DNA of 63,914 bases, the filler included, from Folioceros fuciformis (taxonomy: Eukaryota): the NCBI GenBank assembly GCA_049999805.1. It is 5 parts of 5 records of this genome, joined end to end, with 100 filler letters (N's around TTAATTAATTAA, not from the genome) between each part and the next. Parts side by side here need not be neighbours in the genome. Positions count along the whole stretch, not along the records: positions 1 to 24,896 come from JBNGIO010003131.1; 4 more parts are not named here. The stretch is one strand, 5' to 3'. The notes under the pieces were generated by a model. That model saw nothing but the letters and a program-made list of their open reading frames with translations, was not told the origin of the DNA and did not search any database. The translations under genes and the position numbers were made by a program. Below, in pieces: positions 1,890 to 61,896 of the stretch. The stretch's first letter is position 1; every line of letters begins with the position of its first letter.

Positions 1890-4311
1890 CCATGCTCTTC
1901 ATCTCAGCAACTTCCATGCAAAATGCCTAGGCAGGGAGCGTCTACTAGGAATGCACGTAATCTAGACACAAATAGGAGAGCTCATCGTGCACGACAAGTC
2001 TCCAATTCCTTTGTACCACTAGATACCATGCTAGACCTATACGATCAGAACTACCCAGAAATTTGCCTTAAACGTTTTGCACAAACCCATTCTAGTGGGA
2101 GATTAAGAGCTCAAAGTGCACATAGAAAGCCAATTAAGGATAGATTATATAAAGCACGTTGTCAACAAAGGGGACATAATCACAATCTACGCTACGAAGC
2201 ACGTGAATTGCCCCCTATCGAGTCTCTCTTCCAACCTAGAACCACAGCAACACAACGTAATTAGCAAATAGATAGAAATTCAATTCCACAAACTAGCCAA
2301 GGCATTGCTGACAGGGCCTTGCCCACAATGACTCATGTGGAGAGGACTCTGTCACGTTTGCTGTCAAACTAGGAAGTGCTGAAGATCAGAGTTGACGATA
2401 TGAAGACGGAACCACGAACAGCTGATCAAATCCCTTGGTTTTTCAAAGCGAAGCTACAAATAATCAAGAATCTTGTGGCTTCTATCACACAACAATTGTG
2501 TGATCTGCACACTGCAACACGAGGGAGCATTGTACAAACCCAAGACGAGGGAGAATTCAGCCTACCAATTTTGTCCTCGGCTAATGGCTTGCAAAGCTGA
2601 AATTTCCGCTGCACAACACAAGCGGGAGCGCCCTGCACCAACACGGGAGGCCATCAGGATCTGAAGCGCTGCAACCAAATTGGTGCCCTTTCACAGCATT
2701 GTGTCCCTTGCACGTTGATAGGTTCTTTAGAAGAGTTGCACCTGTTTAGCAGACCAGGACATGGCAGTTAGGTCAAGAAATGAAACGTCATTACCCTCCT
2801 TTCTCTAAACTAACCTGCATAACGTTTGGCCAAGTGTTAAACTAAACCATGAAGACTTTGATGAGGAGGTTAGCAAGAGAAGGCTAGGATAAGTCTCTAT
2901 CCTTTCCTCCTCCTGCTACCCCCCCAGCAAATCATCCCTGCACTCTTGGTCAGTTTGAGATCAAAACATGATGCATGACCTAACATGAATGTTGCAAGAT
3001 ATTTAGGTATACCAGCATCATCTTGAAGCCGTAGCTTTCAGGTGTTCTATTAGATCTGCATGTCCATTGCACAAATCGATGCACTAGCTCAACAGTTTGG
3101 TCAGTTTAACATTAGACACAAGCCAAAGCCGAATCCCAAACCCATAAAAATGTCTGGTCCAACCTTTACCTCTGAGCTAAAGGAGAAAGAAAGATCGTTT
3201 CAATGGGAACCAATATCATGTTTGGCGTGTTCGCATCAAGGCCATCCTGCTGGCGCGAGGTGTCTGGAACATTGTGGATAGAACTTACGCAAAACCAAAC
3301 CCTACTGCCACTGGAGGAAAGAAGCCGACAACTAACGACATTGCCAAGTGGGACCTCCACATCAACATTACTGTTGCTCTCCTAATCAATGGCCTGGACG
3401 TGGACCTTGTGCCAGATGTCGAACATCTCACAGATGCTGCTGACATATGGGATCAGCTGGAGAGGATATATAAAAGTCAAAATATGATGAGTCTCTGTGC
3501 CATACAGACAGAGCTGTACACATTGAAGATGAGGGAGGGAGACAAGATCTCGGCACATACAAGCCGATTTTGTCAACTACAAGCACAGATTACCTCGCTG
3601 ACTAGCGAAAAGATACCTGAGTCACAGGTTGTGGCAAGGTTACTTTCTAGCCTGCCCCCATCTTATCAAGCTTTCGTCACAACATAGAATGGACCTGTCA
3701 AACCTAGTCAAGCTACTAGAGGTTCTGCAAGCACAATCACATGTGAAGATGTGATTGGTGCTTTGTACCAAGAGGAGCAGTCCCGTTTGAATTCTGCTAG
3801 TGTATTGTGGAGTGGTACTTGCACCCAAGAACCACCAAGGGCCACACTTCCCCCTTATTATCGTCGTAGCACTAGGGTTCGCTCCCAAAGGAGTGAACTA
3901 GTGTGAAGGTTCCCCACAATCTTCCCCACATTGCCCAAATCTAATCCTATCTATCAGCCGGCTCCTAGACCTAACCACACTACAGCAAAAAGATCAGAAC
4001 CCTGTCTTTAACACCAACCACAACCCCAGTTGAATGAGGACTCAGCATCATCCTCAGCTCCCACTTCCAGCTCCTGGTATCAGCCTCCTCAGCAGCTGAG
4101 AGGAGGCCCTAGCTCTGGCCTCGACCTCCACTCTCATTCCTAAATGCTAGCCACCTCAACAGCTGATTGAGAACTTCAGCCCCAGCACAACAACTCCAAA
4201 CTCCAGACCTCAAGTCTCTACTCCAGCACTCGAAGTCTCTACTCCAGCACTTCTCCAGCACTTCAAATCTCTGCTCCAGCACTTCAACTCTTCAGCCCCT
4301 TCACCATCACA

Positions 4312-4807
4312 TCTCACTCCTAGATTTTGGAACACAACAGCCCCTCACTTGCAGTCCTTGAGGCAGGGATGTGCAGACCCAGGCTGGATAGCCTCCTTGG
4401 CTCACAGCCCTGCAATCCATCACCTTGGAAACCCCTTAGGGACGTCAAGGTACCCCAACCACCCAACCAACCTGCAAGAAAGGTCAGCCCCTGCGGATCT
4501 GGCCACCCAGACCTTAGCGATTTTGGGAGCCGCCACGTTCCCCTAGTGGCATGGGGAATCAAGGCTGAGGTGCATCTGCACACTGGATTAATCCCTCTAA
4601 CCCTGCTGCAGCCTGCACACAAGGTCAAGGGCATTCTTCACCAAAAAAAGCCTCCCCCTCAATGAAAGGCCTGGCCTCTTATACTCCCTTGGCCAGGAAC
4701 CCCTGTCACTGCCTAACCAGGTCAGCGCGCCTCATACAGAACACTCCACTCGTCAAAACCCTAAACCTAACTCCGACCTAATCCTAACCCTAACTTTGAC
4801 CTAACCT
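4312..4807 (+). repeat. About 0.5-kb dispersed repeat, second copy at 62350-62837; ends in telomere-like CCTAA/ACCCTAA units
   Basis: Direct visual alignment of the two copies; the ORF track gives near-identical translations (4327 vs 62364; 4320 vs 62351). Confidence 0.9.
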
Positions 4808-7600: not shown

Positions 7601-10600
7601 ACGCCCGGCTTAGGGCTCCACACACGCCGGCATCCCTCTCCACGGGCACACCCTACCCCCTACTTCACATTTTCCACGGCCACGAGTTAGCTAGACGATT
7701 GTTGACTTTCTAAACTGCACCACCACTATCTCCTGATCATCCTCTTTAATCTAGCCTTATCTAACATAGTTTCCTAATTACCTCTCGAAGGAATTCTATC
7801 AAAACTCCAAAAAAAACAAATACCACCCATTTTCTAAGAGGCCTATCTACCATGTGGTCTCCACATATACCTAGGAACAAAGCAAAAAAGGTGTTAGCTA
7901 TAGGCTTTCGACCTAACAAAAACAAGTCCAATGCAACACAACCTCCAGCAAGTGGCAAACCTGACAGTGGTTCGTCATCCTCCAAGAGACCAGGGAATTG
8001 TAACTGGTGCGGAATTGCTGGTCATTGGGCCTGAGAGTGTAAGAAGAAGAAATCTGGTGAACCTCAACGTGCTACTAAGAGTGTTGCGAATGTCACCATT
8101 AAAGACAGACAATCAGGTGACATCAAACCACCGGTGAAGATCCTCACTGTGTGTCTTGCCCGTTCTGTGCAAAAGGAAGGGAGATGGTACCTTGATCCTG
8201 GTGCAACCTCACACATATGCAAGGACAAAAAACAGTTCTTCACTCTCGATTCACGCCAGTCCACATCAAAAGTGCTTTTGGGTGACGAACAAAACAAAAC
8301 CAGTTTGCAAATACAAGGACAAGGTATTTGCAAGTTCAGTCTTCATGATGGATCAATTCTGAGCCTACAGGATGTGCTGTACGTGCCATCAATGGCAAAG
8401 AACCTCCTGTCCCTCAGTAAACTAATGCAGTAGAGGACCTACCACATGAAGGCTGCAGATGGCACAAGCCTGTTTTACAGAAGTATTGACCCATCGTTGT
8501 ACGTCTTCAAAGGCATTGTGGAAAATGATCTGTACAGGCTAGACATTTTCACACATAAGCAGGTAGCGGGTTTAGCATCCACATATACACAAAAATTAGC
8601 AATCATGTGGCACTCTCCTTTGTCATGTGAACCAGCACAAGTTGGTAGATATGTCTCTACAGGAATGTCATAAGGAACCTTTACCTTGATGGTTTAAGGA
8701 CTTCCCTTCCTGTGAGGCTTGCATCATAGCCAAGCAGAAGCAACATCCATTTCCACACCTGGCCTCATACAGAGCAAAGGCTGTCTTAGAACTTGTGCAC
8801 GCAGATACCCCAGGGAAAATCCAAGTACCTTCAGTAGGCAGTGCTTTGTACTACCTAAATATCATAGATGATTACTCACGGTGTACCTGGACGTACCCTT
8901 TACAATTCAAGAGTGATACCTTCGCCACATTCCAGGGTTGGTTTGTAAGTGTACAGCGCCCGACAGGAAATTCAATCAAGTATTTAAGGACTGATAATGG
9001 CATAGAATTCTTGAATACAGCCTTTGACGCATTCTTACATGAACATGGTGTACAAAGGCAATTGACTGTTCCATACACGCCACAGCAGAATGGTGTGGCC
9101 GAACGCAAGAACCAAACCCTCTTACCCATGACACATAGCATGCTTCTCTGGGCTAGATTACCTCAAAAATTCTGGGCTACATATGTACTCAATAGACCGT
9201 TTACCAGCTCCGTCCCTTTGAAGACACCTTTTGAAGCCATGTGGAACAGAAAACCAAGCTTGCTGCACTTACGGGTCTTTGGATCTCGTGCTTTTGCACT
9301 TATACTTGAAGAGAAGAGGTGGAAGTTAGACCCTAGGGCTCGAGCTTCGTTGAATATAGTGAAACCTCCAAGGCATACAATCCTACCTCACAGACAGCTG
9401 TTCTGGCCAGGTCTGTCACCTTCATTGAGCTTACACGCCTTGCTACACCAATTTTTCAGTCCCATTTGGATTATGAGGGAGCCAATTCAGTTGCTGAGGG
9501 AGAAAATCTGGAAGAAGAAACATCTGAATTTGACTTCCTAGATGACGCAGGCCCTAACCCAGCACAAGTGATACCGGCTTCAGCAAACCCTGATCCTGCC
9601 CATCCAGATCCATATGAACAGGACCCTGCTGACCAGGCACAAGGCTATGTAGACGATGTTGTAAACGTTCCTTGCAATGAGGACAACTTTCATGATCTGA
9701 ATTTCCAGGAAGATGCAGCACAGGCTGATGATCTAGGAGGCTTACCTGATGCTCTTGATGTGCTGGATACTGGACCATAAATTGAGGAAGAACCCCTACT
9801 GTCGGATGACCCTCCTCCAAGACGTTCCAGCAGGCACAAGCCACCTCCTGAAGAATGGAAGGAGCCTAGATACCAGTCCATCGATTTCCGCACATCTTAT
9901 GCTGAAGCTATACATGCTGCATCAACCACAATTGACTTGGAACCTAAATTGCTAAAAGAGGCTTTTTCAAGCCCTGAAAAAGACAAATGGAAATTTACGG
10001 TTGATGACGAGTTCAACAGCCTCGTCAAAAACCATACCTGGAAATTGGTGGACTTGACGCCTGACAGGAAACCCATCTCTTGTAAGTGGGTATTCAAATT
10101 AAAGTTGAATGACAAAGGTGAGATAGCCAGATACAAGGCGAGACTTGTCACCAGGGGTTTCACACAGGTCAAGGGACTAGACTACCAAGAAACCTTCTCT
10201 CCTATCGTGAGATCACAATCAATCTGAATGATTCTGGCTTTAGCTACAGAATATAACCTGGAATTGTATCAAATGGATGTGTGCACGGCATACCTCTATG
10301 GAGCACTAGACAAGGACCTCTATATGACACAGCCTGAGGGCTATGAAGATAAAAATCATTCCAAGAAGGTGTCCAAATTGTTGAAGACCATCTATGGTGT
10401 GAAGCAAAGTGGTCGAGTCTGGTACTTGAACATCCACATTTACCTCCTTAGCAGATCATTCAAATAGAGTGCAGCTGACAGCAATGTTTACAGGCTCACA
10501 AGAGGCAAGGAATATGTCGTGCTCGCCCTCTACGTCGATGATGTGATCCTAGCTTCCAGCAGCACACAACTGTTAGAAGAAGTGAAATCCATGTTGAGCA

Positions 10601-14747: not shown

Positions 14748-17700
14748 ATGGCCACAGTAGGACAGCCGGATCCGTTGTGGACTCAACAAATTGGTCTGCA
14801 TACAGAGATTGTGCGAGGAGCTTCTGGGCATCTCGTGTCGGGGAGTGAACGTCTGGCAAGTAAAAGCGTCAGGTGCAGCAGTTCAATGAGACCGGCAGTT
14901 CAACTTTTGACGAAATGTGTAGCTGGGGACGGGTTTTGCAGGGATGCTCGTTACCAGGAGCAGCAGCACTTGTGGCAACAATCATTTCTGGACCCGACGA
15001 TGTGGTGGTACAACAGGCGAGATACGAAGAGCTCGCGTTGGCGTGACTTCCGGCGGCGTAGGGCCTCCGGCGAGGTACTGTTGTTGAACATGGTTGATGA
15101 GCAGCTCGTTTCCTTGGACATGGAGGTGGGTGATGATGCCTCTCCTTCTAAGCCGAGGTCTTGGGATAATCCTGTACCCGGAAGGCGTGCGCAATCGCAA
15201 ATGGGCTCCAGGTGCAGCAGTGTAAGGAGCCCATTTTGTCTTCCGATAAGCTGTGGGTGGGCACTTGTGGCAACAATTTTTTCTGGACCCTACCATGTGG
15301 TAGGACAACAGACGAGATGAGAAGAGCTCCCGTTCGCCTGACTTTCGACGTTAGGGGCCCGGCGGGGTCCTGTGGTTAAACGGCATTTTTAAGCCAGCTT
15401 GGGTTGATGAGCGGCTCGTGCCCTGGGACATGCAGATGGGTCGTGGTGCTTCTCTTTCTCAGTCCAGCTATCCGGATAAGTGTGAACCGGGCAGGTGTGC
15501 AGGATCGGAAATGGGCGTCGTTACGGCCGTAACCTTGTGCACGCTATGTCAGCAGGGGAAGCTTCGTGAGGCCGGCGGAGCCCTGTCATCTCTTGCACAG
15601 ATAGACTCTGCTGTTGCTCCCTCTCTGTTTTGCACTGTGCTGAAACTGTGCACGGCTATGAAGGACTTGGTGGTGGGGCGCCGTGTTCATGATCGCATGG
15701 TCAGTCTTGGGTACGCGTCGGATGCATACCTAGGGAATCATATCTTGCGTATGTATGCATGTCGGGGTAGGGTAGAGGAGGCAATGGATGTGTTCACCAG
15801 GATAGCCAAACCAGATGTCATCACTTGGGGTTCCATTATCTCTGCGCATGCTAAACATGGGAACTCAAGATGGCAATACAACTGTATCATGAGATGCGTA
15901 GTTCAGGATTGAAGACCAATGGCCACGTATTCGTAGCTGTCCTTCAAGCTTGTGCTTCTGCCGCTGACTTGGAATACGGCAGAACAGTGCACTGTGATGT
16001 GTTGCACAGTGACATTCCCACTAACCTCTGTGTTGGCAACTGCCTGGTGGACATGTATGCAAAATGTGGCGAAATGAAGAACGCACGCCAGGTGTTTGAC
16101 ACCATGGCCACAAAGGACGTGGTAATATGGAATGCCCTGATATCTGGATATGTGATATGCGGTGAACTGAAAAATGCACACAAGGTTTTTGATGGCATGA
16201 ACTCAAGGAATGTGGTTTCACGGGATGCCCTGATAGCTCGATATGGGTCTCGGACATGAGGCACTCGTCCTGTATGGGCAAATGGAGCAGAATGGCGTTA
16301 TTTTGGCTGACCACGTTACATTTGCTTGCCTTCTAAAGGCCTGTGCAAGCACTGTTGCCTTACAGAAGGGCAGGCAGCTGCACTCACTGATCGTAGAAAG
16401 AGGGCTGCTGGATAATGTAGTGTTGGGCAACTGCCCAGTGGACATGTATGCAAAATGTGGTGATCTGAAAGATGCACGCCAGATTTTTGACAGCATGAAC
16501 ACAAAGAATGTTGTGATGTGGAATGCTCTGATATCTGGGCATTCCAAATCTGGTGAACTGGATGATGCACGCCACGTTTTTGACAGCATGGCTACAAAGG
16601 ATGTGGTAACATGGACGTCGCTGATTGCTGGGTATGCACAGCAAGGACTCGGCCAAGAGGCTCTTCTTGTATTTGAACAAATGGAACAAGAAGGCCTCAT
16701 ATTGGCGAACCATTCTACTTTTTCTTGCCTTCTGAAGGCCTGTGCAAGCACTGGTGCTTTACACAAGGGCAGGCAGCTGCACTCACAGATTGTGGAAAGA
16801 GAACTGCTGGATAACGTAGTATTGGGCAACTGCCTGGTGGACATGTATGCAAAATGCGGTGAGCTGGAAGGTGCGGGCCAGGTCTTTGACAGCATGAATA
16901 CTAAGGATGTGGTGACATGGACCGTCCTGATATCTGGTTACGGTTCTTGTGATGATGGTCACAAGGCTCTAGCCTGTTTTGAAGAGATATTAATCGCTGG
17001 TATTCAGCCCAATGACGCCACATTTACTTGCCTGTTGGTAGCTTGCAGTCACGGGGGGCTGGTCTACGAGGGTCGAAAGCACTTTGATTCCATGTCTCAA
17101 CAGCATGGCATCGAGCCAACTCTTGAGCACTACAACTGCATGATTGATCTTCTTGGCCGTGCAGGCTGTTTAGATGAGGCAGAGAAGATGCTGTTAGCAT
17201 GCAACGGTCAAGGTAATGTTGTGGGATTGACTTCTTTGCTAAATGCCTGCAAAAGTCACGGGATTATCGAGAGGGCGGTATGGTGTTTTGAAGGAATTGT
17301 TAGGTTGGACCCTCAGGACTCGGCTGCATATGTGCTCATGGCCAATGCCTACGCAGATGCAGGTATGTGGGCCGATGGAGACAGGATTGAAACACAGAGA
17401 ATGAAAGCGGGGGGAACAAGTTACCAGCAATGGCAAGCATTGAGGTGAATAAGCAGGTACATCAGTTTCTTGCGGGAGAAAGAAGGAGTGATATTGCTCT
17501 AAAGGTGGAGAGCACGAATGTACGTTTGAAGCAGGAAGGAGACCACGTTCCTCACACGAAGTTGGTTTTGAAGCCAGTTTGTGAGAAGGAAAAGGAAGAC
17601 GTACTTTGTTGGCATGCTGAGAAGCTAGCCCTGGTGTTTGGTCTCTTGAACACTCCGAGTGGTATACCTCTGGTGGTGACAAAGAATCTACGCATGTGCG

Positions 17701-17822
17701 CTGACTGCCACAGTTCCACAGAGATCATGTCAAGGCTGGAACAGAGAGACATTGTTGCAAGGGATGGGTACCGTGTACATCGATTCACAGCTGGTCGTTG
17801 CAGTTGTAAGGACCGACCGTGA
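14748..17822 (+). pseudogene. PDF-motif + PLS-class PPR + E + DYW:KP RNA-editing factor (copy 1), intronless and frame-disrupted
   Basis: Two WxxFFxDPxxWWDNR..PDF(R)R..GEVLWL motifs (14973-15108, 15268-15417). P/L/S repeats ([29 protein letters not shown]) from ~15600, then an E domain. DYW 17415-17822 has KLPAMASIEV, CWHAEKLA, KNLRMCADCH and ends CSCKDRP*. Stops at 15301 and 15352; frameshifts at ~15250, ~15868, ~16243 and ~17412. Confidence 0.92.
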
Positions 17823-18846
17823 GAATATGAAGAACCAGCCAGTGCTCACGTTGCTTGCGGTCTGGCTGGGTCACAGACTCAAGAGAGCTCACCTGCGAGG
17901 CACACGCATCTGTAGCAGGTCCGGGATCGGAGATGCTGGCCTGGAATTTGGCTCAGATATGGGGGTGTCGAGGCCGGCATTCCCGGATTGAGCTTACAGC
18001 TGTGGCAGGAAGCGGTGGAGGAGGTCGAGCTTTGGAGGCACTAACCCGCCACCCCTTAGGATAGCATCATCCACACCCATCATTCTCCATTTCTTGCTCA
18101 CACATCTTAGGGTGGCGTTTAGCGTTGTTGGACTTACTGATTCTCCCAGGCGATGATACTGTGGGTGACATACTCGCAGGCTTCGGTGATCATGTATCCA
18201 GAATATGGTGAACTGGAAGACTCCGGATATTTCGCTGCTTGGCCTTGAGTATGGGAAAATGTAGCAGGAGGCCTGACTATGGCTGGAGAAAGTGATCCTT
18301 TTTTCTTGCCTTCTGATGGCGTGTGAAAGTGCTCAAGACCAAGCAGGTGGCCTCACAGGTTACGAAAGGAGTCACAAAGAACATATTTGTGGGCACGGCC
18401 TGGTGGGTGCGTGCAATGTGTACTGAGCTGGACGATGCGCGCTGGGCTTTCTTCCTGCATGGCCTCAAGGACTGGACCAGCTGTAAGGATTGGTGCAAGT
18501 GAACTTGAAGCTGGTATTCAGGTCATGGCAGTTGGGCTCCGATCAAAGTTTGGATCAGCAAGTCGATGTGATCATAGCAGACCTCAATGGTCGAGACAGG
18601 TTCACTTAGCAGTCACGACCCTGCAAGCCTGTTTGCGAGATACCCACTTCGCTACCCGTGATGGAGACAACGCGGTGCCCCGGTGCTTGGATACAAAGAA
18701 GCTGCACTCCTATGGCCACCAGAGTTTTTGATTAAGATTGATAAAATTCCAGCATTGTAAGTTGTTTTTCAAACGTAATACCAAAGGCGGGGGACACTGT
18801 CATCGAGATCGATCTTCCTACATAAAGTGGCAGTGAAATCATAGAG

Positions 18847-20960: not shown

Positions 20961-23283
20961 ATGACGGTGGCCACAGGAAGGCAACCGAACACGTTGTGGA
21001 CCCAACAGATTGATGTGTGCACTGGGATTCAGCAAGGGGTTCCAGCTAACCTGGCTTTGTGGAGCCAACCCCTGGCAACAAAGCCTCCAGGTGGCAGCAG
21101 TGTAAGGAGCCCAGCACTTCCACCCATGAGAAGATGTGTGGATGGGTCATGGGGGTTCCACCGATGGTCGTTGCCACGAGCAGGAGCACCTCTGGGAACA
21201 TTGTTTTCTGGATCCCAGAATGTGGTGGGACAACAGACGAGACAGGACGAGCTCCCGTTCGCCTGACTTCCAGCCCAAGGGGTCCGGTGAGGTGCTGTGG
21301 TTGGACAACATGTTTAAGCTGGCTTGGGTTGGTGAGCAACTCTTTTCCTTGGATATACAAAATGGGCTGTGGCGTCTCTCATTCCAAGTCCAGCTCGCCG
21401 GATGAACCTGAATCTGACAGGCGTACAGCATCGGAAATGGGCTCCAGGACCGTCAGTGTAAGGAGACCAGCACTTCCACTTTCGAGAATATGTTGGAGTG
21501 GCGAGGGGTTCCCCAACCTTGGTCGTCGCCAGGAGCAGGAGTAGTTGTGGCTACAATTCTTTCTGGAGCCTACCATGTGGTGGGACAACAGACGAGCGAA
21601 GAAAAGTTTCAGTTGGCCTGACTTTCGGCGTAACGGGTCCGGCGAGCTGCTGTAGTTAAACGACATGGTCAAGCCAGCTTGGGTTGATAAGCAGCTCGTT
21701 TCGTTGGATCTGGGGGTGGGCGATGCTGCCTTTCCTTCCGTGTTCAGCTCTCCGGGTAAGCATGAAGCTCACAGGCGTTCAGCAGGGTCGGGAATGGACG
21801 TGGTTACGCTGTAGACGTGAGCACTTGATGTCAGTAGGTGAAGCTCTGGGAGGACGTTGGAGCCCTGAAGTCTCTGACGCAGACAGGCTCTTTCTATATT
21901 ATGCTATTTCTCCCTCTCTGTTTTGTACTGCGCTGAAAGTGTGCACAGCTAAGAAGAATGGTGGCGCGAGGAGTTCATGACCTCACTGTCAAACTTGGGT
22001 ACGAGTCGAATGATCTTTGGGGAATCAGATCTTGCGCATGTATGCATGTGGAGGTAGGCTAGAGGAGCCAATGGATGTGTTCACCAGGGTAGGCAAAGCA
22101 GATGGCCGTTTTCCATAATCTCTGCATATGCTAAGCAGGGGAGGGAGATCCAAGGAGGCCATACATCTGTACCATGACCTGCGAGGTTCAGGGGTGAGGG
22201 TGGATGGATGCCCACGTATTTGTGGCTGCCCTTCAAGCTTGTGCATTTGCCGCTGACTTAGAGTCTGGCAAAAGTGGGATTCCTCCTCACTTGTTTCTGA
22301 GCACCTGCCTGGTGGACATGTATGCAAATGCGGAAAATTGAAAGATGCATGCCATGTTTTTGACAGCATGTGCACAAAAGACGTGGTGACATGGAATGCC
22401 CTGATATCTTGGTATGCAAAATGCAGGGGCTCAGACAGGAGGCGCTTGTTCCGTATGGGCAAATGGAGCAGGAGGGGCCCATTTTGGCAGATAAGTTTTA
22501 CTTTTTCCTGCCTGCAAAGGGCCTGTGTAAGCACTAGTGCCTTGCAGAAGGGCAGGCAGCTGCACTCACTGATTGCCAACGTGGGCTGCTTGATTATGTA
22601 ATGGTGGGCAATAGCCTGGTGGACGTCCATGTATACAAAATGTGGCAAATTGGAAGACGCACGCCAGTTTTTGACAGCTTGTCCACCAAGGATGTGGTGA
22701 CATGGATGGTGCTGGTTGCAGGGTATTCCTAGCAAGGGCTGGGACAAGAGGCGCTTGTTCGGCATGGACAAATGGAGGAGGCAGGCCTCATTTTGGCTGA
22801 CGATGATACTTTTGCCTGCCTTCTGAAGGGGTGTGGAAGCACTGGTGCCTTAAAGAAGGGCAGGCAGCTGCCCTCGCAGATTTTGCAGAAGAGGATTGCC
22901 GGATAACGTAGTGCTGGGCACCTGACTGATGGACATGTATGCAAACTGTGGTGAACTGGAAGATGCGCGCCAAGTTCTTGACAGCATAGTCACAAAGGAT
23001 GTGGTGACATGGATGGCCCTGATATCTGGGTACGGACCACAAGGCGATGATGGTCACAAGGCACTAGCTCGCTTTGAGGAGATGTTAGTTGCTGGTACTC
23101 AGCCTAACGACGCTACTTTCACTTGCCTTTTAGCAGCATAACGGACTGGTCGTTGAGGGTCGCATGCACTTTGATTCCATGCCTGAACGCCATGGGATCA
23201 AAGCTACTCTTGAGCACTACAATTGCGTGACTGATCTTCTCAGGCGCGCCTGGCATTCGGTTGAGGCTGAGAGGTTGTTGTAG
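20961..23283 (+). pseudogene. PDF-motif + PLS-PPR pseudogene (copy 2), heavily decayed, truncated in the E region with no DYW
   Basis: PDF motifs WEHCFLDPRMWWDNRRDRTSSRSPDFQPKGSGEVLWL (~21193) and WLQFFLEPTMWWDNRRAKKSFSWPDFRR (~21548). Fragmented PPR motifs 21900-23280 are colinear with copy 1. Confidence 0.88.
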
Positions 23284-23805
23284 TGCACTCCATGTAGCAT
23301 GGAAGACAAATAGGGGTAAGACGACATAAATCTCAAAGTCACACGTTTGCTTGTTGTAGCAACAAGGCCTAAGATACGTTGAAAATAATGTGAGAGCAAA
23401 TTCATGATCCCAAAATCTAGGCTCCCCGCCCAACAAATCGATGATTCTAAATCCCTGCACCCATCATCGTTCTCGCAATTCAATAAGTTAAACCCATATT
23501 CTTACAGGATAGCAGGTCCAATGTAAGGTACACCATGGAGAAATCTGCAACTGCTCTAAGTAAACTTGTGATGCTAGATTGATTGAGTGAGCAGAATGAT
23601 TCGAAAGATAAAGGATTATTTTTAGTCTCCAAATGAGTCAGGATTATACAACTGAAACTGAAAGTCGGTGCGTTTGCTTGGTTTTGTAGCTTTCACCCAG
23701 TTCCTGTGGCCCAGCTTTGAGTCTGGATATTTGCTACTGTTGCGACGCCAACGTGTTTGTGGTGTCCAACTCAACAGGGTGGAGCGTCGGCCCCGAGTGC
23801 TGGCT

Positions 23806-24896: not shown

Positions 24897-24996
24897 NNNN
24901 NNNNNNNNNNNNNNNNNNNNNNNNNNNNNNNNNNNNNNNNTTAATTAATTAANNNNNNNNNNNNNNNNNNNNNNNNNNNNNNNNNNNNNNNNNNNN
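24897..24996. other. Scaffolding gap with artificial TTAATTAATTAA linker (same linker at 34947-35046, 54136-54235, 61797-61896)
   Basis: An identical 44N + TTAATTAATTAA + 44N block occurs four times. Confidence 0.98.
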
Positions 24997-34495: not shown

Positions 34496-35799
34496 GTGAT
34501 GAAGGGAATCTACCAAGCTAGATAACAGTGGTGCTTTGTCCTATTGAATTTTCTAGTCTACTCCCGTGCCTGCCAATCTAGTCTGGTGTGTGTGTCTTCT
34601 AGTCTGGTCTCTTATGTGCTTAGTAATTTTCTTTGGTATTAGTATAGTTCTTGCACGCATGCTAATCCAGACAAGTAAATATCTGCTAGTCCTTACTTGT
34701 ATGGATTTGCCATTCCATTTTGGTCTGATTTTAAAGATTTTGTGGTTGGCAATTTTGCAGTGAAGGCGGGGTTTCACATGTCCGTGAAACCCCATGGGAT
34801 AGCAACCATTCACCTTCCAAAACAGATAAAGAAGGACACATTGCATATGGAACGCAATCCAAAAAAATAAAGCGACGTAGGTCATCAGGTAGTTTAGGCA
34901 AGGATCTCATGTTTGGCTTAGCAGCTTTTGCTGAATGCCTTGCTCANNNNNNNNNNNNNNNNNNNNNNNNNNNNNNNNNNNNNNNNNNNNTTAATTAATT
35001 AANNNNNNNNNNNNNNNNNNNNNNNNNNNNNNNNNNNNNNNNNNNNTTTGGCTATACTTAAGATAATATTTTATTTAATATCTTATAGTTTTTTAACTTA
35101 TTTGAAGTTTGTAAACTATAGATAGTGATTTTTTACATAATAATCGTATCATTTATATTACAATGATTCTATTAATAATGCACAATTGAGGAGGGAACAA
35201 CATGAAAAGAGTTGAGATGGAGGGAAAAATTAGGACATAAGGAGACAAATTTGAACAAAGGATAAGCATTTGTTAATTCTCTTGAGACTAACAAACACCA
35301 TATAAAAGCTAATAAAGTTTGATGGACTTTACTTTAATAATGTTTGAAATGAAGACTTTAATGTAAGTAGAATACGTATACATTGCTTGGCTTGGAGTAT
35401 AGCCATATAGGCGCTTAAGCGCGGCGCAAGGTAGTCGCTTTCTCAATTCGTAGCTAACTTAACTTATAACAGCACATCTCTATTTTCCACTTGAGGTCCT
35501 TTTCAATAAGATTCTTCGTCAAGAAGGATGCTTATTACAACTGATTTTTTCTTCTTCCTGTGCGTCTTCTTTTTCCTGACGTTTCCTCCACTAGGTGGGA
35601 GACCATAGATGACGCTTCTTCCACCATGTCTCTATCACTCTCTGGGGCTTTTTCCATGGTGGCTTTCCATCATGTCGTAGTTGTAGGTGACTCTTCCTTC
35701 TTTGTGTAGATTGTAGGTCGCTATCTTCCTCTAGGTGATGTTTTAGGAGTAATAGGCCAAATAGGACTGTTCCTCTGTGCATTGTGCGTCCATTTCTTC

Positions 35800-38454: not shown

Positions 38455-40296
38455 ATGCGTGTGATCGTGCCACTGCAAGGCGTGCTCCAGGGCCGCCTGG
38501 GCATCGTGTTCGGCTCCATCATCCCCTGCGCGCTCTTTTACTTCATGCAGCTGCGGCTGCGGCGATCCCGCCAGTCACACGTCCAGGCAGCGGAGTCGGA
38601 GCAGACGCCGGATCACGAGCAGGCATCGCGCGACGCTGGCCCGGGCTCCGACGCACACTTGCATGCGGCCGTGGCTGTGGCTGCGCGGGCTTTGGCAGTG
38701 CTTGAGCCCGATATCGAAGTGGCGGCCTACTACCAGGGCTGGGAGGAGTCCAACCGCAACGCCTTCCACCCGCAGCGCAACCCCGCTGGCTGCATCCAGC
38801 TTGGCTTGTCGGAGAACACGGTGAGCAGGGCCGGCGTTGGGAAGCGCGCCTGGCTAGACGCTAGGGTTTGCGTGCCTGCGTTCGTGCGGTGCTTGCGAAG
38901 GCGGAAGAGACAGTGGTGCGATTTTGATGTTGGATGGTGTGTTTTTGTGTGTGTGATGGCAGTTGTCGCTAAGTCTACTGGATCAGTGGTTCGCTTCCCA
39001 TGGGACTGCGCCTGCGGAGGAGATTCTGAGTATTCTCGGCTTCACGGCCATCGCCGGCTACCCCGATGTGTACCACGGACTTCCGATCTTCCGATCGGTA
39101 AGCTGCATTACGAGTAAGGGTCAAAGCTCGGTTGACCCGCATTCCTAGGCGGCTGACCGCCTGCGGGCGATGCTCTCTCGCAGGCTCTGGCCAGCTTCAT
39201 GGAGGAGGCCTTTGGCGGAAATTTGCATTTCGACGCGGACAAGATGGTTGTCACCACCGGGGCAACTGCGGCCATTGAGATGTTGGCTTTCTGTTTGGCG
39301 GAGGCTGGGAATGCGGTCCTTGTTCCTGCTCCAGTGTACAGTGGGTGCGCGTCAGTAGTTTCTTGGCTAGAAAAGCTGTCTACAAGGTTTAGCTCGTGTG
39401 TGTTGTCAACTTCTCTGTGCTTACTTCCTGTCGCCCTTTTCAGGTTTGAGAGGGATGTCAAATGGCGAAGTCAGGTGGAACTCATTCCAGTCCAGACAAG
39501 TAGCAAGAACAATTTTTTGCTGACGAAAGGTTCGCTGGAGAAGGCTTACGAAGAGGCCAAGAAACAGGGGAGGACTGTGAGGGCTTTGCTGCTGACGTCG
39601 CCTTGCAACCCTGTCGGCACAGTGTATGATGAGGAGTACCTTCTGCGGCTGCTGGATTTTGTGAGGGAGAAAGATATTCATCTTATCTCCGATGAAATCT
39701 ACGCCGGCTGCGTACACGGGAGTGCGAAGTTTGTCAGCTTTGCGAAGCTTGTGTCGCAACGTCCACAGTGTGCAAGCAGGGTTCACCTAATTTATGGGCT
39801 GTCGAAGGTTCTTGGCATCCCCGGTTTCCGGGTGGGACTCATTTATTCGTGGAATCAACAGGTTCTTGATGCTGCAGGCAGGTTGACTCGGTTCAGTTCG
39901 GTTTCCACTGAGACACAACAGGTTCTTCATTCTGTCCTTTTGGACAAGGAGTTTGTGAAATCTTACATCCCAGAGAATCAGAGGAGGCTGAGGGAACGTT
40001 GGAGGGTGGTGCGTCACGGACTGCAGCAAGCTGGCATCGAATTTGTAGAATGTGATGCCGGTTTCTTTTGCTGGATAAGGCCCTTGCCGAGGATCAAGAA
40101 CAGAGACGGCGAGCTGAGTCTGTTCAGGGAGTTGCTCTATGATGTGGGCCTGAACGTCACGCCAGGGAGTGCCTGCAGGTGCAAGGAACCCGGCTGGTTC
40201 AGACTATGTTTTGCTATGGTAGATGATCAAACAATGCATGTCGCTTTGCATCGGTTACGAAAGTTTGTCATTGATCATCGTGCGCATAACGGTTGA
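38455..40296 (+). CDS. ACS10/ACS12: ACC-synthase-like PLP aminotransferase (ACS10/ACS12-like clade)
   Basis: Exons 38455-38820, 38963-39097, 39184-39344 and 39444-40296. N-terminal MRVIVPLQGVLQGRLG..SIIPCALFYF is characteristic of ACS10/12. Also IQLGLSEN, SPCNPVG, ISDEIY, PLP-Lys motif GLSKVLGIPGFRVG and EPGWFRLCFA. Confidence 0.94.
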
Positions 40297-43039: not shown

Positions 43040-46000
43040 CGACCACATCGCCCTCTCCAAATCCCCGTGACTTTTGCAGGCATTCAACGAAGACCTCAGG
43101 CCCACGACATTCCTCTGACCCTCCATTGACAACACCAACTTCTCAGCCTCATCCAAACGACCCGCACGCCCAACAAGGTAAGGTCAACCATGCAATTGAA
43201 GTGCTCAATAGAATAGTAGGTATGATGCCATACAGGTCAGACATGGAAGCAAATTGCTCGCGACCCTCGTAAACTAGACCACCGAGACTGCAAGCTACTA
43301 CAAGGCAAGAAAAAGTAGCCCCATCGGGCTGAACACCGGCAACTAACATGTAGTCAAAACAACTTAACGCTCTACGCCAATCATCACATATACCATACCC
43401 AGATATCATGGCATTCCATGACACCACAGTCTTGGTGTTCATGCTGTCAAAAACCTGGCGTGCGTCTTCCAATTCACCACATTTCGCATACATGTCCACC
43501 AGGCAGTTGCCCAACACTACCATGTCCAGCAGTCCTTTTCCCACGATCTGCGAGTGCAGCTGCCTCCTGCCCTTTTGCAACGCACCAGTGCTTCCACAGG
43601 GCCTTCAGAAGGCAACAAAAAAGTCACATGGTCACCCAAAATAAGGCCTTCTTGCTCCATTCGGCCGTACTGAATAAGCGCCTCATGTCCGAGCCCTTGC
43701 CGAGCATACCCGGCAATCAGGGCATTCCATGTCACCACATCCTTCATGGCCAAGCTGTCAAACACCTGCTGTGCGTCTTCCACTTCACCACATTTTGCAT
43801 ACATGTCCACCAGGCAGTTGCCCAACACCACATTTTCCAGTAGACCACTTTTGACAAGCTCTGAGGGCAGCTGCCTGCCCATCTCTATGGCGCAACAGGC
43901 ATCGAGAAGGCAAGCAAAAGTAACATCATTAGCTATGACGAGGCCCTCCTGCCCCACTTGTCCATACAAAAACAAGCCCCTCAATTCCCAGACCTTGCTG
44001 TGCATACCCAGCAATCAGCGCCGTCTATGTCACCACATCCTTAGCGGCCACTCTGTCAAAAAACACGGCGTGCATGTTCCACTTCACCACATTTTTGTAT
44101 ACATGTCCACCAGGCAGTGGCCCAGCACTACGTTATCCAGCAGTCCTCTTTCGACTATCAGTGAGTGCAGCTGCCTGCCCTTCTGTAAGGCACCACTGCT
44201 TCCACAGGCTTTCAGAAGGCAGGCAAAAGTCACATCGTCAGCCAAAGTGACGCCCTCTTGTTCCATGTGTCCATACACACCAAGTGCCTCTTGGCCAAGA
44301 CCTTGCTGTGCATACCCAGCTATCAGGGCATTCCATATCACCACATCCTTTGTGGCCAAGCTGTCCAAAAAACATTGCGTGCATCTTTCACGTCACCACA
44401 TTTTGCATACATGCCCACCAGGCAGTTGGCCACCACGACGTTCTCCAACAGTCCCCTTGCAACAATCAGTGAGTGCAGCTGCCTGCCCTTGTGCAAGTCC
44501 CCACTGTTTGCACAGCTCTCCCCGCAGGCAAGTAAAAGTGACATGGTCAGCCGAACTGATGCCCTCCTGCTCCATTACTACTCCATAAGACAGCAAACGC
44601 CTCATGTCCGAGCCCTTGGTCAGCATACCCAGCAATTACGGCATTCCATGTCACCACATCCTCTGTGGCCAAGCTGTCAAAACCCTGTCGTGTATTATCG
44701 AGTTCACCACATTTTGCATACATGTCCACCCAGCACTACTCTATCCCAGCAGCCCTCTTTCAACGATCAGCGAGTGCAACTGCCTGCCCTTCCGTAAGGC
44801 ACCCGTGGTCACAAGGCAAGCGAATGTAACATGGTTACCCAAAGTCAGCTCATCCTGCTCCAACTGCCCATACAGAGCAAGAGCATAATGTCCTAGCCCT
44901 TGCTCCGCATATCCAGATATCAGGGCATTCCATGTCACCACACTCTTTGTGTTCATGCTGTCAAAGCGTTGGTGTGCATCTTTCATTTCACCACATTTTG
45001 CATGCCCAGATATCATGGTATTCCATGTCACTACATCCTCTGTGGCCATACTGTCAAAAACCTGGCGTGCATCCTTCAGTTCGCCACATTTCGCATACAT
45101 GTCCACCAGGCAGTCACCTACGAACAGGGGTAGTGGGAATGCCACTGGAAAATCTCACAATGCACTTTCCTGCCAGATTCCAAGTCGGTAGCAAATCCAC
45201 ACGCTTGAAGGACAGCTACAAAGACGTGACCATTTGGCCTGACTCCTGAACGTCACATCTCGTGGTACGGTTGCATAGCCTCCTTAGCTTTGCCGTGCTT
45301 GGTGTGTGCGAAGATTGTGGAATGCCACATGAAGGCATCTAGTTTGCCCACCCTGGTGAACACGTCCATTGCCTCCTCCAGTCGACCTAGACATGCATAC
45401 ATGCGTAAGATAACGTTCCCCAATCATGCATTCCGCTCATACCCGAGTTTGAGAGTGAGGTGATGTACTCGTCGACCCACAACTAAATCCTTGTTGGCTG
45501 CGCACAGGTTCAGCACAGTGTGAAACAGCGACAGAGAAATTGCAGAATCTGATTGCGCCAGAGATTCCAGGGTTTGAACGTCCTCAGCAAGCTTTCCCTG
45601 CTGACATACCATGCGGACGGTTGAAGCCATTTCGCATCGTGCACGCCTGCCAGGTTCATGCTTATCTGGACAGGTAAACTTGGAAGGAGAGGCACCATAA
45701 CCCATGTGCACATCCCAGGAAACGAGCTGCTCATCAACCAAAGCTGGCTTGAACAGGTTGTTCAACCACAGAACCTCACCACAGCCCTTACGTCGGAAGT
45801 CAGGCGAACGGGAGCTCTTCTTACCCCGTCTGTTATCTTGCCAGATGGTAGGTGTTGCCACAAGTTTTTCTGCTCCTGGCGACGACCATCGCTGGGTATG
45901 TCATTCACCCCCACGCTTCGTATCGGAAGTGGAAGTGATGGGCCTCGTGTAGCGCTACGCATGAATGCCATTCGCGATTCTGCACCCCTGACAGATTCAG

Positions 46001-46138
46001 GCTAAATCCCATGTGCTCGGATCGGAAGGAGAGGGACCACGGCCCACGTGCATATCCAACGACACTAGCTGCATGCTGTTTAACCGCAGGCAATGCCCTG
46101 GTAGCTGCGAAAGAGAAGTTGGCTTGCTGACTGGCCAA
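43040..46138 (-). pseudogene. PDF-motif + PLS-PPR pseudogene (copy 3) with E-domain start and no DYW
   Basis: Transit-peptide-like N-terminus and PDF motif WQDNRRGKKSSRSPDFRRKGCGEVLWL (45725-45863). Long frameshifted P-L-S array 45500-43200, ending LVGRAGRLDEAEK..NACKSHGDLERA. Confidence 0.88.
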
Positions 46139-47308: not shown

Positions 47309-50300
47309 CTAAGACCAGTATAGCTTTTTCCTAAGTGTGGTGCGCACCTCGAGACACTGAAATATCTTCGTATATCCTGCTTCGGTTTCACGCCGGCCCT
47401 CCATATCCGTGACCTTGCCAATCACGCGTGTTAGAATGCTCAACACATCTCCTGTTTGACAGCTCCGATTGATGGCTTCCATCAACGCTATGATAAGTGT
47501 GAGCCTTCCTCGACATTTCTCAAAGATTCAACTCCAGGACTGGTGGAGAAGACGGTAAGACAGTCGGTCACAGAATACAGGAGTCGACTTCTCTCGCTGA
47601 CAACCTGACTTCCCTCAACGTCTAACCCCTTGTCCTTGCTGCTAGAGGCAAGGTTGCCGGTGCCTGACCCCTCCGCATGCTTCTTTGCAACAAGGTTGCC
47701 AGTGCCTCGACAGGCATTTATGATAACCACCTTAGGCTTGTTTGCCAGATACTCGCATTCAGCGATGGGCTTCAAAATATCATCCTCAACGTACAGCTTG
47801 TCGGCCTCCTGTTCTGCACCTATGCAAACGTATTGTCTTCCATCGTCGTTTTCGGTCCCACCATGTGCGTTGATGCAAAACAGAAAGCCATCGTCTTCTG
47901 CTAGGGCAGGGACCTTGAGAATTTGCCTCAACGTTCTCTTCACTTCCTCCTTAGGGCCCTTCACCACAATTTCTAAATCAAACTTCAAGTTGTCGAGAAC
48001 AGCTTGAAGTCGCCCTCTGTCTACCGCTCCTCCAGGCCTGTCTTCTTCCATGCTCACAATCATGGCCAGACCTCTTCGTTCACCTGCTTTCACCCTTTCA
48101 TTAGGGTATGCTGGTTCCTCCTGCGCTGACTCGCCTTGAGGAGGTACCTCTGAGTGGCCTTTGGCAGCTGAAGAGTGACTCGATGCATGAAGGGATAGAC
48201 GTGTCCGCCGTTCCTGCAAAACATTGTGAAGCTCATCGCTGCTCAAGAGGTCCCTGGCTTTCTCAGGAGCAGGGGGTAGACCAGCTTCAGGCATTGGTGG
48301 CCAGGACCATCGATACTCGCACGAATCCGAGACGGAGGAAAAGTGCCCTGGACTGCTTTTCTCATTTTCGAGAAGGCACTCCATTAACCTCTGCGTGAGA
48401 ACTGATTGATTACGTCGGTAAACACATGGTGTGAGGTTCTCCACGCACACAGTCCGGATGATCCCTTCTACGAGTTCAACTCCAGGACTACCTTCAGGAG
48501 AAGCACAAAAATCTCTTATTTTTGCGGCAATACGCATCTGGAGAAACTCGATGGTTTCGTCTCTGCTCTTGAGTGACCTCATCAAAATGTCGACACGGTC
48601 ACCGATGTCCCCGGTCTCCTCCCCAGTATCTCCGCTGCTTTCCAAAAATACATCCATGCCATCCCAGCTAAAGGTGATCAAGTTGCGTGCGATGGTATAC
48701 TGATGAGACTGCATACCGCAGAGTCCATCAAACAAGACCTGTCGTAAGATGACCTGCGATGCACAACCATTGGCGATGTCATGAAACCCGAGTGAGGATA
48801 AATGAGTAAGAATAAAGAGCTCACAAGCGTAAGCAAACATACTTGGAATCTCGGAAAGAAGCCTGGGCCGAGAAACGTTTTCCTTTCATCTCGGCATTGT
48901 AGCCTCCTCCCTACGTAATTGTGATTGCCCGCCGTACCACCATTCCACTCCAACTGTCGTTTTCCGCTTAGAGCTTTCCCATTATCGTCATCCAAGGTGA
49001 AGGGGACGAAGAATCCAGGACCTCGATCGTCTTTGACAGCTCTGTAACATAGGTTTACTGTCTCCATCAATGATACCAGGTCTTCAACACCAATTCCGTC
49101 CGCTTGCGCGCGTAGAAGGATCGGTCCCAAGGCTGAACGGAGGAGCCTTTGAGCGACAAATCCATCTGAGAAACGTCCCAAGACACTCGTGGCCGGTCGA
49201 GTTAGAGGCTGAATGAGACGCCCCAAAAAGGAATGACTGATCCATTGTGGATTTACCACCACAGCATCTAGACCTTGGAAACAGATGACCCTACCTACGT
49301 CGTGCAGGTAGGCAAGCATTGCTTGAAGGCGTCTCCCATCATCATCTTGTTGAACGTTAACTTGCCCATCCCCTACCCAGTCTAGAAACAAGTTTCTGAA
49401 CTGCTCTTTCGTCACAATAGGCTGAGCTGGATTTCGAGATAGCCACGCAGTCAAAACAGCACTGAATCGATTGCATATCTCCGGAACCCTGAACAGTCCC
49501 ATCTTAAATAAATCTCGGAACGATTGGAACAGTTAATCCAGCAAGGGCTCTACAGTCTCTGTAGATCGGGCATCCATGATGAAAGGAGGCTCGGTGGTAC
49601 TAACAAGAAGTACCTGCTGAAAATCGGAGGCCAACTGTGTGACGACTGGTTGAAGCAGATCGAGTACTATTTCAGCCTCCTGAGCTTGCATCTGATCCTT
49701 GTGGGTGACAACCACAAGTATCCGAGGCAAACCAGAGCCCACATTGCGACAATTAGAGTTGATGAATCTAAGCCAAAACTTGAAGCTGTTTCTGCACTTG
49801 GCCTGCAACATTTCACTGGACGGGAGGAGTTGCCCACCCTGCAGGGCATCAAATGGATTGAATGCAAACACGAAGACACATGCTTGGTTCAAGGTCGGGA
49901 ACAAGTAGTCTTGCAGGGCTCGGTAGTGAGCTTGACCAGCCAGATCCCAGATGGTAATTTCCATGTCATGGTCGTTGGGCAACGCCTCGATTTCAATACC
50001 TTCCGTTCTGAGCGTACCCGTGTCGTTGCGCAACACCTCGGATTCCAAGCCTTCCGTTTCAGATATGGTCCCCGTGTCGTTGCGCAACACCTCAGATTCC
50101 ATGCCTTCCGTTTCAGATGTGGTGCCGGTGCATAAGGAACATACCCATCGCCAAACAGGAGACATCGCCGAACAGATCCCTAAACCCTGTCCAAGTTCGA
50201 CCCAAGGAAAGGGTCGAACTTGGACAGAAGGGTCTGTTCCTTCCCTTGCCCATGCGCGAATCATGGTGGTGCGGAGAGTGGTCTTGCCTGCCAAAGGCGC

Positions 50301-54135: not shown

Positions 54136-54235
54136 NNNNNNNNNNNNNNNNNNNNNNNNNNNNNNNNNNNNNNNNNNNNTTAATTAATTAANNNNNNNNN
54201 NNNNNNNNNNNNNNNNNNNNNNNNNNNNNNNNNNN

Positions 54236-61796: not shown

Positions 61797-61896
61797 NNNN
61801 NNNNNNNNNNNNNNNNNNNNNNNNNNNNNNNNNNNNNNNNTTAATTAATTAANNNNNNNNNNNNNNNNNNNNNNNNNNNNNNNNNNNNNNNNNNNN

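Follow-up and report, generated by a model that had tools for sequence, protein, structure and literature searches.

The window—the whole stretch of Folioceros fuciformis DNA analyzed here, 63,914 nucleotides—holds three old, decayed paralogues of an organellar-type, PLS-class PPR gene family, with motifs of the PDF type found in OSB proteins standing ahead of the PPR array. Gene models from other plants indicate that this fusion is a real family trait far outside the window, and that its build—a leader, then one to three OSB-type PDFs, then the PPR array—is, as modeled, intact in moss, lycophyte and fern. The literature we searched yielded no description of the fusion, and as a build for PPR editing factors it is apparently undescribed there. 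Such factors are described as a PPR tract with a targeting peptide before it and E/DYW domains after it; an additional conserved module, shared with a family of ssDNA-binding proteins, would be a new part, and one that a lycophyte carries in dozens of genes per genome and that mosses and ferns have as well. Seed-free plants are not known to have MORF/RIP helpers, and there the PDF module offers a direct handle on how the function of PLS-PPR proteins is supported. It also raises the question of a physical tie between RNA processing and organellar DNA. Pfam contains no PDF model, which is probably why domain-based surveys of PPR proteins would miss the fusion.

The three copies, A, B and C, and their parts are laid out in the window as follows:

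14748–17822, plus strand: copy A, a PDF-PDF-PLS PPR-E-DYW pseudogene that runs colinear with P0245, an intact protein of Diphasiastrum
14748–14963, plus strand: leader of copy A, 72 codons before the first PDF, beginning at the ATG at 14748
14964–15119, plus strand: PDF motif A1, stop-free but degraded (W-R-D-F, six-residue deletion); OSB-only HMM E 9.4e-6 at 14967–15089
15262–15429, plus strand: PDF motif A2, interrupted by TAG stops at 15301 and 15352; OSB-only HMM E 1e-13
15535–17390, plus strand: PLS-type PPR array and E motif of copy A; Pfam PPR families, best E 2.4e-54, and E_motif PF20431, E 2.7e-8
17391–17822, plus strand: DYW deaminase domain of copy A, KP-like (K-L-P-A-M-A, HAE, CADCH, ending KDRP); Pfam PF14432, E 4.3e-32
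20965–23292, plus strand: copy B, a PDF-PDF-PPR pseudogene, truncated at its 3' end and without DYW, placed by DNA similarity to copy A
21184–21354, plus strand: PDF motif B1, stop-free; OSB-only HMM E 1.2e-14
21545–21709, plus strand: PDF motif B2, with one stop; OSB-only HMM E 2.4e-12 at 21542–21700
43042–46062, minus strand: copy C, a PDF-PPR pseudogene, truncated at both ends and without DYW, placed by DNA similarity to copies A and B
45712–45870, minus strand: PDF motif of copy C; OSB-only HMM E 4.3e-13 at 45724–45867

None of the copies is an open reading frame, and all three are pseudogenes: dead genes, without function of their own. Their DNA is about 70–77% identical (69–77% for copy B against copy A). 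Copy A has suffered four frame changes (near 15250, 15864, 16240 and 17400) and two TAG stops; copies B and C contain numerous stops and frame changes, have decayed further than copy A, and have lost the DYW domain—a tblastn search across the window found no DYW other than copy A's. DNA similarity between copies A and B begins at 14746 and 20965, respectively, and the leader of copy A is possibly a targeting presequence. Copy C retains one whole PDF motif; of an earlier one just the tail is left, since the resemblance to copies A and B sets in at 46062. By its domains copy A belongs to the PLS-class PPR-DYW proteins, with tandem PPRs, an E motif, and a DYW deaminase that has both HxE (HAE) and CxxCH (CADCH). 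Its PPR array and E region are colinear with P0245 and P0188 by blastx, and its second PDF and first PPRs align to P0245 in a single frame, gap-free, which places the join between PDF and PPR inside one exon.

The breaks in copy A are not assembly errors. Contigs of the same organism (X1, 2017, and X2/X3, 2025) span every one of them, all four frame changes and both stops, with 0 differences to the window, although one of these runs may be the source of the assembly itself. A small conserved intron between the first and second PDF was considered as the cause of the frame change there in copies A and B, and rejected: the shifts fall at different places. In copy A the linker shares the frame of motif 1, in copy B that of motif 2, and one GT...AG pair, examined by eye, does not restore the frame.

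A sequence-only reading of this DNA had reported two motifs of about 50 amino acids upstream of the PPR array at 14748–17822, and had assigned them to the OSB PDF type. Both are there, and A2 reads as quoted, with the in-frame TAG codons at 15301–15303 and 15352–15354 rendered in that quotation as '(W)' and '.'. The assignment also holds up. An HMM that draws on nothing but OSB motifs (61 PDF segments, taken from 30 named proteins) matches the window five times (E 1.2e-14 to 9.4e-6), always upstream of the three PLS-PPR copies; the next match in the window scores −3.0 bits, and the best match in 20 shuffled windows −0.2. By these scores the five motifs are beyond chance. The P-D-F triad is present in four of them (A2, B1, B2 and C); in A1 the Pro is lost and the triad reads R-D-F.

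The search also succeeds in the opposite direction. A profile of the five window motif pieces, run against 1.84 billion representative proteins, finds 428 at E ≤ 1e-3, the top matches among which carry repeated C-terminal motifs; five of ten scanned match the SSB family, two of these above the Pfam cut-off. Named OSB1, OSB2 and OSB3 proteins are recovered, including OSB3 of Chenopodium and OSB1 of Populus. These reciprocal matches support common descent, and by profile comparison the homology of the window motif with the OSB PDF motif is genuine. The latter was reportedly described by Zaegel et al. in 2006 in the organellar ssDNA-binding proteins OSB1–OSB4. PMC6963530 gives it as about 50 residues with a conserved Pro-Asp-Phe signature. 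In OSB1–OSB4, as in the window and in PDF-PPR proteins generally, the motifs are about 55 residues long, share the same conserved core including P-D-F, and occur in one to three tandem copies; they lie C-terminal to an SSB/OB-like domain in OSB proteins, however, whereas in PDF-PPR proteins they lie N-terminal to a PLS PPR array, with no OB domain. The SSB domain (PF00436) has no match in any ORF of copy A, nor in the eight PDF-PPR proteins scanned. Since the window motifs precede PPR repeats and SSB is not matched, these are not OSB proteins.

Other searches were silent. Pfam finds no family at E ≤ 1 in the motif-bearing ORFs, which is no argument against homology given that it has no PDF model, and copy A's N-terminal ORF of 190 residues, used as query in a word-based search, gave no match among longer proteins at E ≤ 0.001, itself weak evidence. 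AlphaFold2 models the motif confidently (mean pLDDT 84.9), with the layout helix, hairpin, helix. The PDF profile has no sequence match among solved structures at E ≤ 1; the model has none in the PDB by Foldseek at E ≤ 10, and by VIA-align over 48,161 chains its best Z is 2.5. As modeled, then, the motif gains from solved structures neither a fold assignment nor a functional hint, and the lack of a match is no proof of a new fold.

Although homologous to those of OSB proteins, the PDFs of PPR proteins form a cluster of their own: across 91 rows the label changes three times, where shuffling gives a mean of 52.5. The window's five motifs make up one clade whose nearest neighbor is a PPR-type PDF, and placing all 96 PPR-type PDFs in a single clade is compatible with the data (not rejected, p-AU 0.90). 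Nearly all OSB rows in this tree are angiosperm, and one OSB PDF from a fern groups with those of PPR type; the separation may be partly taxonomic. An aromatic and basic core (W4, W14, R18, D28 and F29) is retained in the PPR-type PDFs by alignment.

That the fusion is a family trait had been proposed from the three copies, in all of which the motif precedes the PPR array, and retrieved proteins bear this out: 53 of 54 PPR proteins have N-terminal PDFs, one in 22 of them, two in 23 and three in eight. The PDFs always come before the array, save in one model that resembles two genes joined. Named sources are Diphasiastrum, Selaginella, Adiantum, Ceratopteris, Sphagnum and Ceratodon. PPR families occur on 26 of 120 among the matches listed in one PDF profile search, and on all 37 in another. 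The name of the source of P0182, a 1374-residue ORF, is formatted like a transcript-assembly id, and P0182 would accordingly be a continuous PDF-PPR ORF in RNA.

These models bear on a deflationary account in which the motif sits outside any working protein: it would be a leader that import removes, an artefact of gene modeling, or a juxtaposition made by chance or by transposons and confined to pseudogenes. All three window copies are, to be sure, dead, and no RNA run on record contains the locus. (Run X1, only guessed to be RNA, covers flanking non-genic DNA too.) But the PDFs match at E of about 1e-8 to 1e-22 in 53 intact models from at least six named genera, in up to three tandem copies, and are conserved far above what a presequence would be. 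A leader sits upstream of them: from model start to first PDF the median is 56 residues. Several models have only 4–13 residues there, and either have wrong starts or have no cleavable presequence. At window position 15302, moreover, related contigs carry G (38 in X1, 47 in X2, 47 in X3 and 113 in X4), which turns the TAG there into TGG (Trp). We consider it very improbable that the motif is an accident of this sort.

In most PDF-PPR proteins nothing follows the E motif; 46 of the 53 have no DYW domain. If they are editing factors, these would need a deaminase in trans, and the PDFs might then mediate contacts between proteins—oligomerization, or recruitment of that deaminase—instead of binding nucleic acid. 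AtOSB2 is a tetramer according to PMC6963530, in keeping with such a role; the sole activity reported there for the PDF motif is ssDNA binding, and on balance protein contacts seem to us quite unlikely to be its function.

The seven proteins that do have a DYW domain speak to a narrower proposal, the second idea of the sequence-only reading: a PDF that serves DYW:KP proteins and U-to-C editing specifically, as their built-in cofactor. The DYW:KP subclass is said to have been defined by Gutmann et al. in 2020. In it, a Lys-Pro pair replaces Pro-Gly in the N-terminal box (PMC11845758), Ala or Cys follows the catalytic His (HAE or HCE), and a variable C-terminal triplet stands in place of DYW; the U-to-C activity of natural KP proteins is putative (PMC11845758). 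With the PLS-class PPR-E-DYW editing factors as a whole (DYW:PG and DYW:KP; PMC11845758, PMC9478123) copy A shares its PLS array, its E motif, and its HxE/CxxCH DYW domain; those factors lack the N-terminal PDF module of PDF-PPR proteins, and the window copies differ from them, too, in being pseudogenes. The sequence-only reading had called copy A's domain DYW:KP outright, and this stands only in part. With W-H-A-E, and a C-terminus that reads C-S-C-K-D-R-P, the domain has the KP-type Ala after the catalytic His, and a final triplet other than DYW, and it retains the active-site Lys of K-N-L-R. Its N-terminal box, however, read without a natural KP alignment, is N-K-L-P-A-M-A-S-I-E-V: the Gly of P-G is gone, a Leu intervenes between Lys and Pro, and the result is K-L-P-A where KP proteins have K-P. 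By these residues the domain is only KP-like. In the ESM Atlas it finds only generic DYW clusters, which do not resolve KP from PG.

Copy A thus unites PDFs with a KP-like DYW domain, and this is what a KP-specific cofactor has in its favor. The seven retrieved PDF-PPR-DYW proteins, in contrast, are all canonical and PG-like (HSE...DYW), none of them KP-like, and the great majority of the PDF-PPR proteins retrieved have no DYW at all. The fusion occurs, furthermore, in Selaginella, Sphagnum and Ceratodon, and neither Selaginella nor the mosses are known to have U-to-C editing. Copy A itself, as read here, lacks an adjacent K-P pair. The tie that had been suggested to DYW:KP and to U-to-C editing is not supported, and the cofactor idea is close to refuted.

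What probably explains the PDF modules best, in our judgment, is that they act as accessory binders of single-stranded nucleic acid, without sequence specificity, on the 5' side of the PPR tract. In living members of the family the mature protein would keep them. A PPR tract lies along its RNA with the N-terminus toward the RNA 5' end, so the PDFs would contact the strand immediately upstream of the PPR footprint, where they could raise affinity or hold the target single-stranded, and this role would be independent of the direction of editing. According to reviews (PMC6963530, PMC4166229), the PDF motif of AtOSB1 alone suffices to bind ssDNA.

PMC4166229 also has recombinant OSB1 and OSB2 preferring ssDNA to dsDNA or RNA. 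By analogy this would count against RNA binding, and would favor a different use of the same activity, the first idea of the sequence-only reading: PDFs that anchor the PPR protein on organellar DNA in single-stranded form—nucleoids, R-loops, or intermediates of replication or recombination—for co-transcriptional processing or editing, or for DNA metabolism. OSB1 reduces the formation of mitochondrial R-loops (PMC8330923), and PPR-type PDFs have kept the motif's core residues, both of which fit a tether. PPR-type PDFs cluster separately, however, and their preference could have changed; the attached PPR tract, besides, is an RNA-binding module. We regard a DNA tether as somewhat unlikely. Larger still, and in our view unlikely, is the idea that PDF-PPR proteins form an ancient and hitherto undescribed class of organellar PLS-PPRs of single origin, predating the split of mosses from vascular plants and kept in seed-free plants, whose OSB-type modules couple site-specific RNA factors to ssDNA at transcribing or recombining organellar genomes and would make processing or editing co-transcriptional. 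No seed-plant PPR protein with a PDF is among the matches listed, which would fit loss in seed plants.

Accessory binding of single-stranded nucleic acid, the reading we prefer, would make the PDF comparable to the RRM of maize PPR4. In both, a separate single-strand-binding module precedes the PPR tract. PPR4 joins an RRM to P-type PPRs and is experimentally characterized (PMC9459714), whereas PDF-PPR proteins join PDFs to the PLS class and are known from sequence.

The window DNA is of the eukaryotic, plant-like nuclear type, and it carries three related PLS-PPR loci:

14748-17822, + strand: copy A, PLS-PPR locus, related to B and C
about 20965-23292, + strand: copy B, PLS-PPR locus, related to A and C
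46062-43042, - strand: copy C, PLS-PPR locus, related to A and B

Pairwise, the copies are 69-77% identical in DNA, and the similarity between A and B starts at the start codon (14746 and 20965, respectively). Pfam matches in copy A are to PPR repeats (best E 2.4e-54), the E motif (E 2.7e-8) and the DYW domain (PF14432, E 4.3e-32); among the three copies, only A has the last of these.

No Pfam model matches the motif that precedes the repeats, and its homology was therefore checked in both directions. A forward profile of the five window motif pieces, run against 1.84 billion representative proteins, matched 428 at E<=1e-3, of which 91 reached E<=1e-10 and 15 reached E<=1e-30. Ten top matches without a PPR match were scanned; five match the SSB family at E<=0.001, two of which pass the Pfam cut-off, and in the five the motif repeats are C-terminal. 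Named cluster members include OSB3 of Chenopodium quinoa and OSB1 of Populus, and a second search, with 14 PPR-type PDFs, found many further proteins named OSB1, OSB2 or OSB3. For the reverse direction, 37 source-named OSB proteins were given and 61 PDF segments from 30 of them went into an HMM free of window and PPR sequences. In the six-frame translated window this OSB-only HMM matches exactly the five motif places (E 1.2e-14, 1e-13, 4.3e-13, 2.4e-12 and 9.4e-6); the sole other match stays at -3.0 bits, and the maximum over 20 shuffled windows is -0.2 bits. The sequence-only reading had identified the motif as the PDF of OSB proteins, to be abandoned should it fail to score against OSB profiles. 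It does score, at all five places, and the window profile in turn finds named OSBs: the observation stands, and the homology call is correct. The window genes and the PDF-PPR proteins are not themselves OSB proteins, however, because the OB/SSB-like domain, the defining part of OSBs, is missing from the window genes and from the PDF-PPRs scanned, and because their motifs lie N-terminal to PPR repeats. One forward match, P0046 (1526 residues), combines a PDF-like motif (three matched stretches, E 2.6e-16) with a kinesin motor (PF00225, E 1.8e-86), the regions of interest being residues 191-245 and 428-765; either the motif has another non-OSB setting here, or the gene model is a fusion.

The fusion extends far beyond the window. 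Eleven of the best 150 forward matches also match the window PPR array, and Pfam confirms PPRs in all eight that were scanned. The search with PPR-type PDFs returned 627 proteins at E<=0.001, with PPR families in 26 of the best 120, and a search with the PDF region of one retrieved protein, P0188, returned 37, every one with PPR families. Among 291 proteins retrieved, 54 match the PPR array and 53 of these have PDFs by the OSB-only HMM; the single exception is a short isoform, and the longer isoform of that gene does carry the motif. By our own count, Diphasiastrum complanatum contributes 32 PDF-PPR proteins among the matches listed, several with neighbouring locus tags; further named sources are Selaginella moellendorffii, Adiantum capillus-veneris, Ceratopteris richardii, Sphagnum fallax, Sphagnum jensenii and Ceratodon purpureus. 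Seed plants supply most of the OSB matches, yet no seed-plant PPR protein occurs among the matches listed (for the search with PPR-type PDFs, the best 120 of the 627), which hints at absence without proving it. The earlier suggestion that the fusion is a family trait is thus borne out: judged from these protein models, PDF-PPR is a genuine one, widespread in seed-free land plants. We found no description of it in the open literature; supplements, Zaegel et al. 2006 and the DYW:KP-defining paper lay outside that search and could mention it. A term search of a 2026 study of OSB evolution (PMC13393729) returned neither 'PPR' nor 'pentatricopeptide'.

The 53 proteins contain one PDF (22 proteins), two (23) or three (8), ahead of the PPR array in all except P0197. 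This Diphasiastrum protein of 1362 aa has PDFs at residues 142-197 and 680-735, the second mid-protein, and looks like two tandem genes merged in one model; together with the neighbouring Diphasiastrum locus tags it suggests that PDF-PPR genes stand in tandem, as copies A and B do. Methionine starts 51 of the 53 models. The leader ahead of the first PDF varies from 4 to 142 residues (median 56, n=53), and the longer leaders, in our own reading, are Ser/Thr-rich with few acidic residues and would resemble targeting peptides. P0182, named by its source in the style of a transcript-assembly id, is an ORF of 1374 residues with three PDFs and then PPRs.

A tree of the motifs (161 rows of 56 columns, and hence of low resolution) separates the two settings: the PPR label changes 3 times against a mean of 52.5 on shuffling, and none of 500 shuffles is as low. 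The five window motifs group in one clade (SH-aLRT 100), to which a PDF of the retrieved protein P0003 comes closest, and a tree that keeps the 96 PPR-type and window PDFs in a single clade is not rejected (p-AU 0.90). All but four OSB rows come from source-named OSB proteins, nearly all angiosperm (taxon labels were assigned by hand from source names), and one of the four fern OSB PDFs is placed among the PPR-type PDFs. The pattern would fit, without proving, a single old fusion.

For the living family, the architecture, its conservation and a retained aromatic and basic motif core are established; W14, R18, D28 and F29 are invariant in the alignment. A confident AlphaFold2 model of B1, the first motif of copy B, with the alignment of the 14 PPR-type PDFs as input, shows a two-stranded hairpin between two helices (mean pLDDT 84.9); neither a sequence match nor a fold match to solved structures was found for the PDF profile or the model. 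The PDF motif of AtOSB1 alone suffices for ssDNA binding, as one review reports (PMC6963530). The retained core, the model and this reported binding lead us to suppose that the PDFs act as sequence-unspecific single-strand binders on the 5' side of the PPR footprint. The strand so bound would, in our preferred reading, be RNA. The main rival, put forward in the sequence-only reading, is that it is DNA, to which the PDFs tether the PPR protein, and its strongest argument is that OSB1 and OSB2 bind ssDNA in preference to dsDNA or RNA, according to a passage in another review (PMC4166229).

A further proposal was that the fusion goes with DYW:KP domains and U-to-C editing. In the published descriptions consulted (PMC11845758, PMC9478123), a K-P pair replacing P-G is one of three defining features of KP domains, Ala or Cys follows the catalytic His, and the C-terminal triplet is variable. 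Copy A reads HAE, ends in D-R-P and retains the active-site Lys of K-N-L-R; its N-terminal box, K-L-P-A-M-A, is neither P-G nor K-P. By comparison with that description, rather than by alignment to natural KP sequences, its domain may be called 'KP-like'. The family as a whole points elsewhere. The DYW domain is absent in 46 of the 53 proteins, many of which, among the matches listed, have the E_motif entry (PF20431); the other seven all have HSE and a DYW end, with P-G in six and R-G in P0245, an intact Diphasiastrum protein. The fusion also occurs in Selaginella and mosses, in which U-to-C editing is not known. A tie between the PDF-PPR family and this editing is not supported.

The window copies themselves are dead; all three are pseudogenes with interrupted reading frames. 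Copy A stays colinear with P0245 all the way from its PDFs to the final DYW residues, but following it requires four shifts of frame (near 15250, 15864, 16240 and 17400) and passes two TAG stops (15301 and 15352). Stops and shifts are far more numerous in B and C, where similarity ends ahead of the DYW domain, and C is truncated at its 5' end within its first motif. Contigs from the public sequencing runs X1 (a 2017 study) and X2 and X3 (a 2025 study) show no difference to the window over all the frame changes and both stops, these runs being from the same organism and one possibly the assembly's own source. The TAG at 15301 is private to this locus, since almost all related contigs have G at 15302 and read TGG (Trp): 38 in X1, 47 in X2, 47 in X3 and 113 in X4, a run from a second organism. 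A and B both change frame between motif 1 and motif 2, at different positions, the linker being in the frame of motif 1 in A and of motif 2 in B. The two shifts are separate lesions and do not mark an intron common to both copies. PDF-coding DNA is highly multi-copy in the contigs of both organisms. Over 16012-17870, the PPR and DYW parts, summed contig depth in X1-X4 is higher than in the flanks by a factor of hundreds to thousands, exceeding 1 million at maximum in X4. This shows that near-identical PPR segments make up a very large family in the genomes behind these runs.

Elsewhere in the window, a long ORF without introns that encodes a class I/II aminotransferase domain (39157-40296, + strand, E 5e-67) and another that encodes a caspase (Peptidase_C14) domain (47488-48885, - strand, E 3e-17) are neighbouring genes or gene fragments. 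Paired 44-base runs of N with 12 bases between them, at 24897-24996, 34947-35046, 54136-54235 and 61797-61896, are masked or gap stretches. At 55723-59647 (- strand) there are copia-type LTR retrotransposon ORFs (gag, integrase, RVT_2), and a separate integrase fragment lies at 8690-9541 (+ strand). A direct repeat of about 500 bases (90.6% identity; 4308-4806 and 62345-62837, 58 kb between) probably represents two copies of one mobile element.
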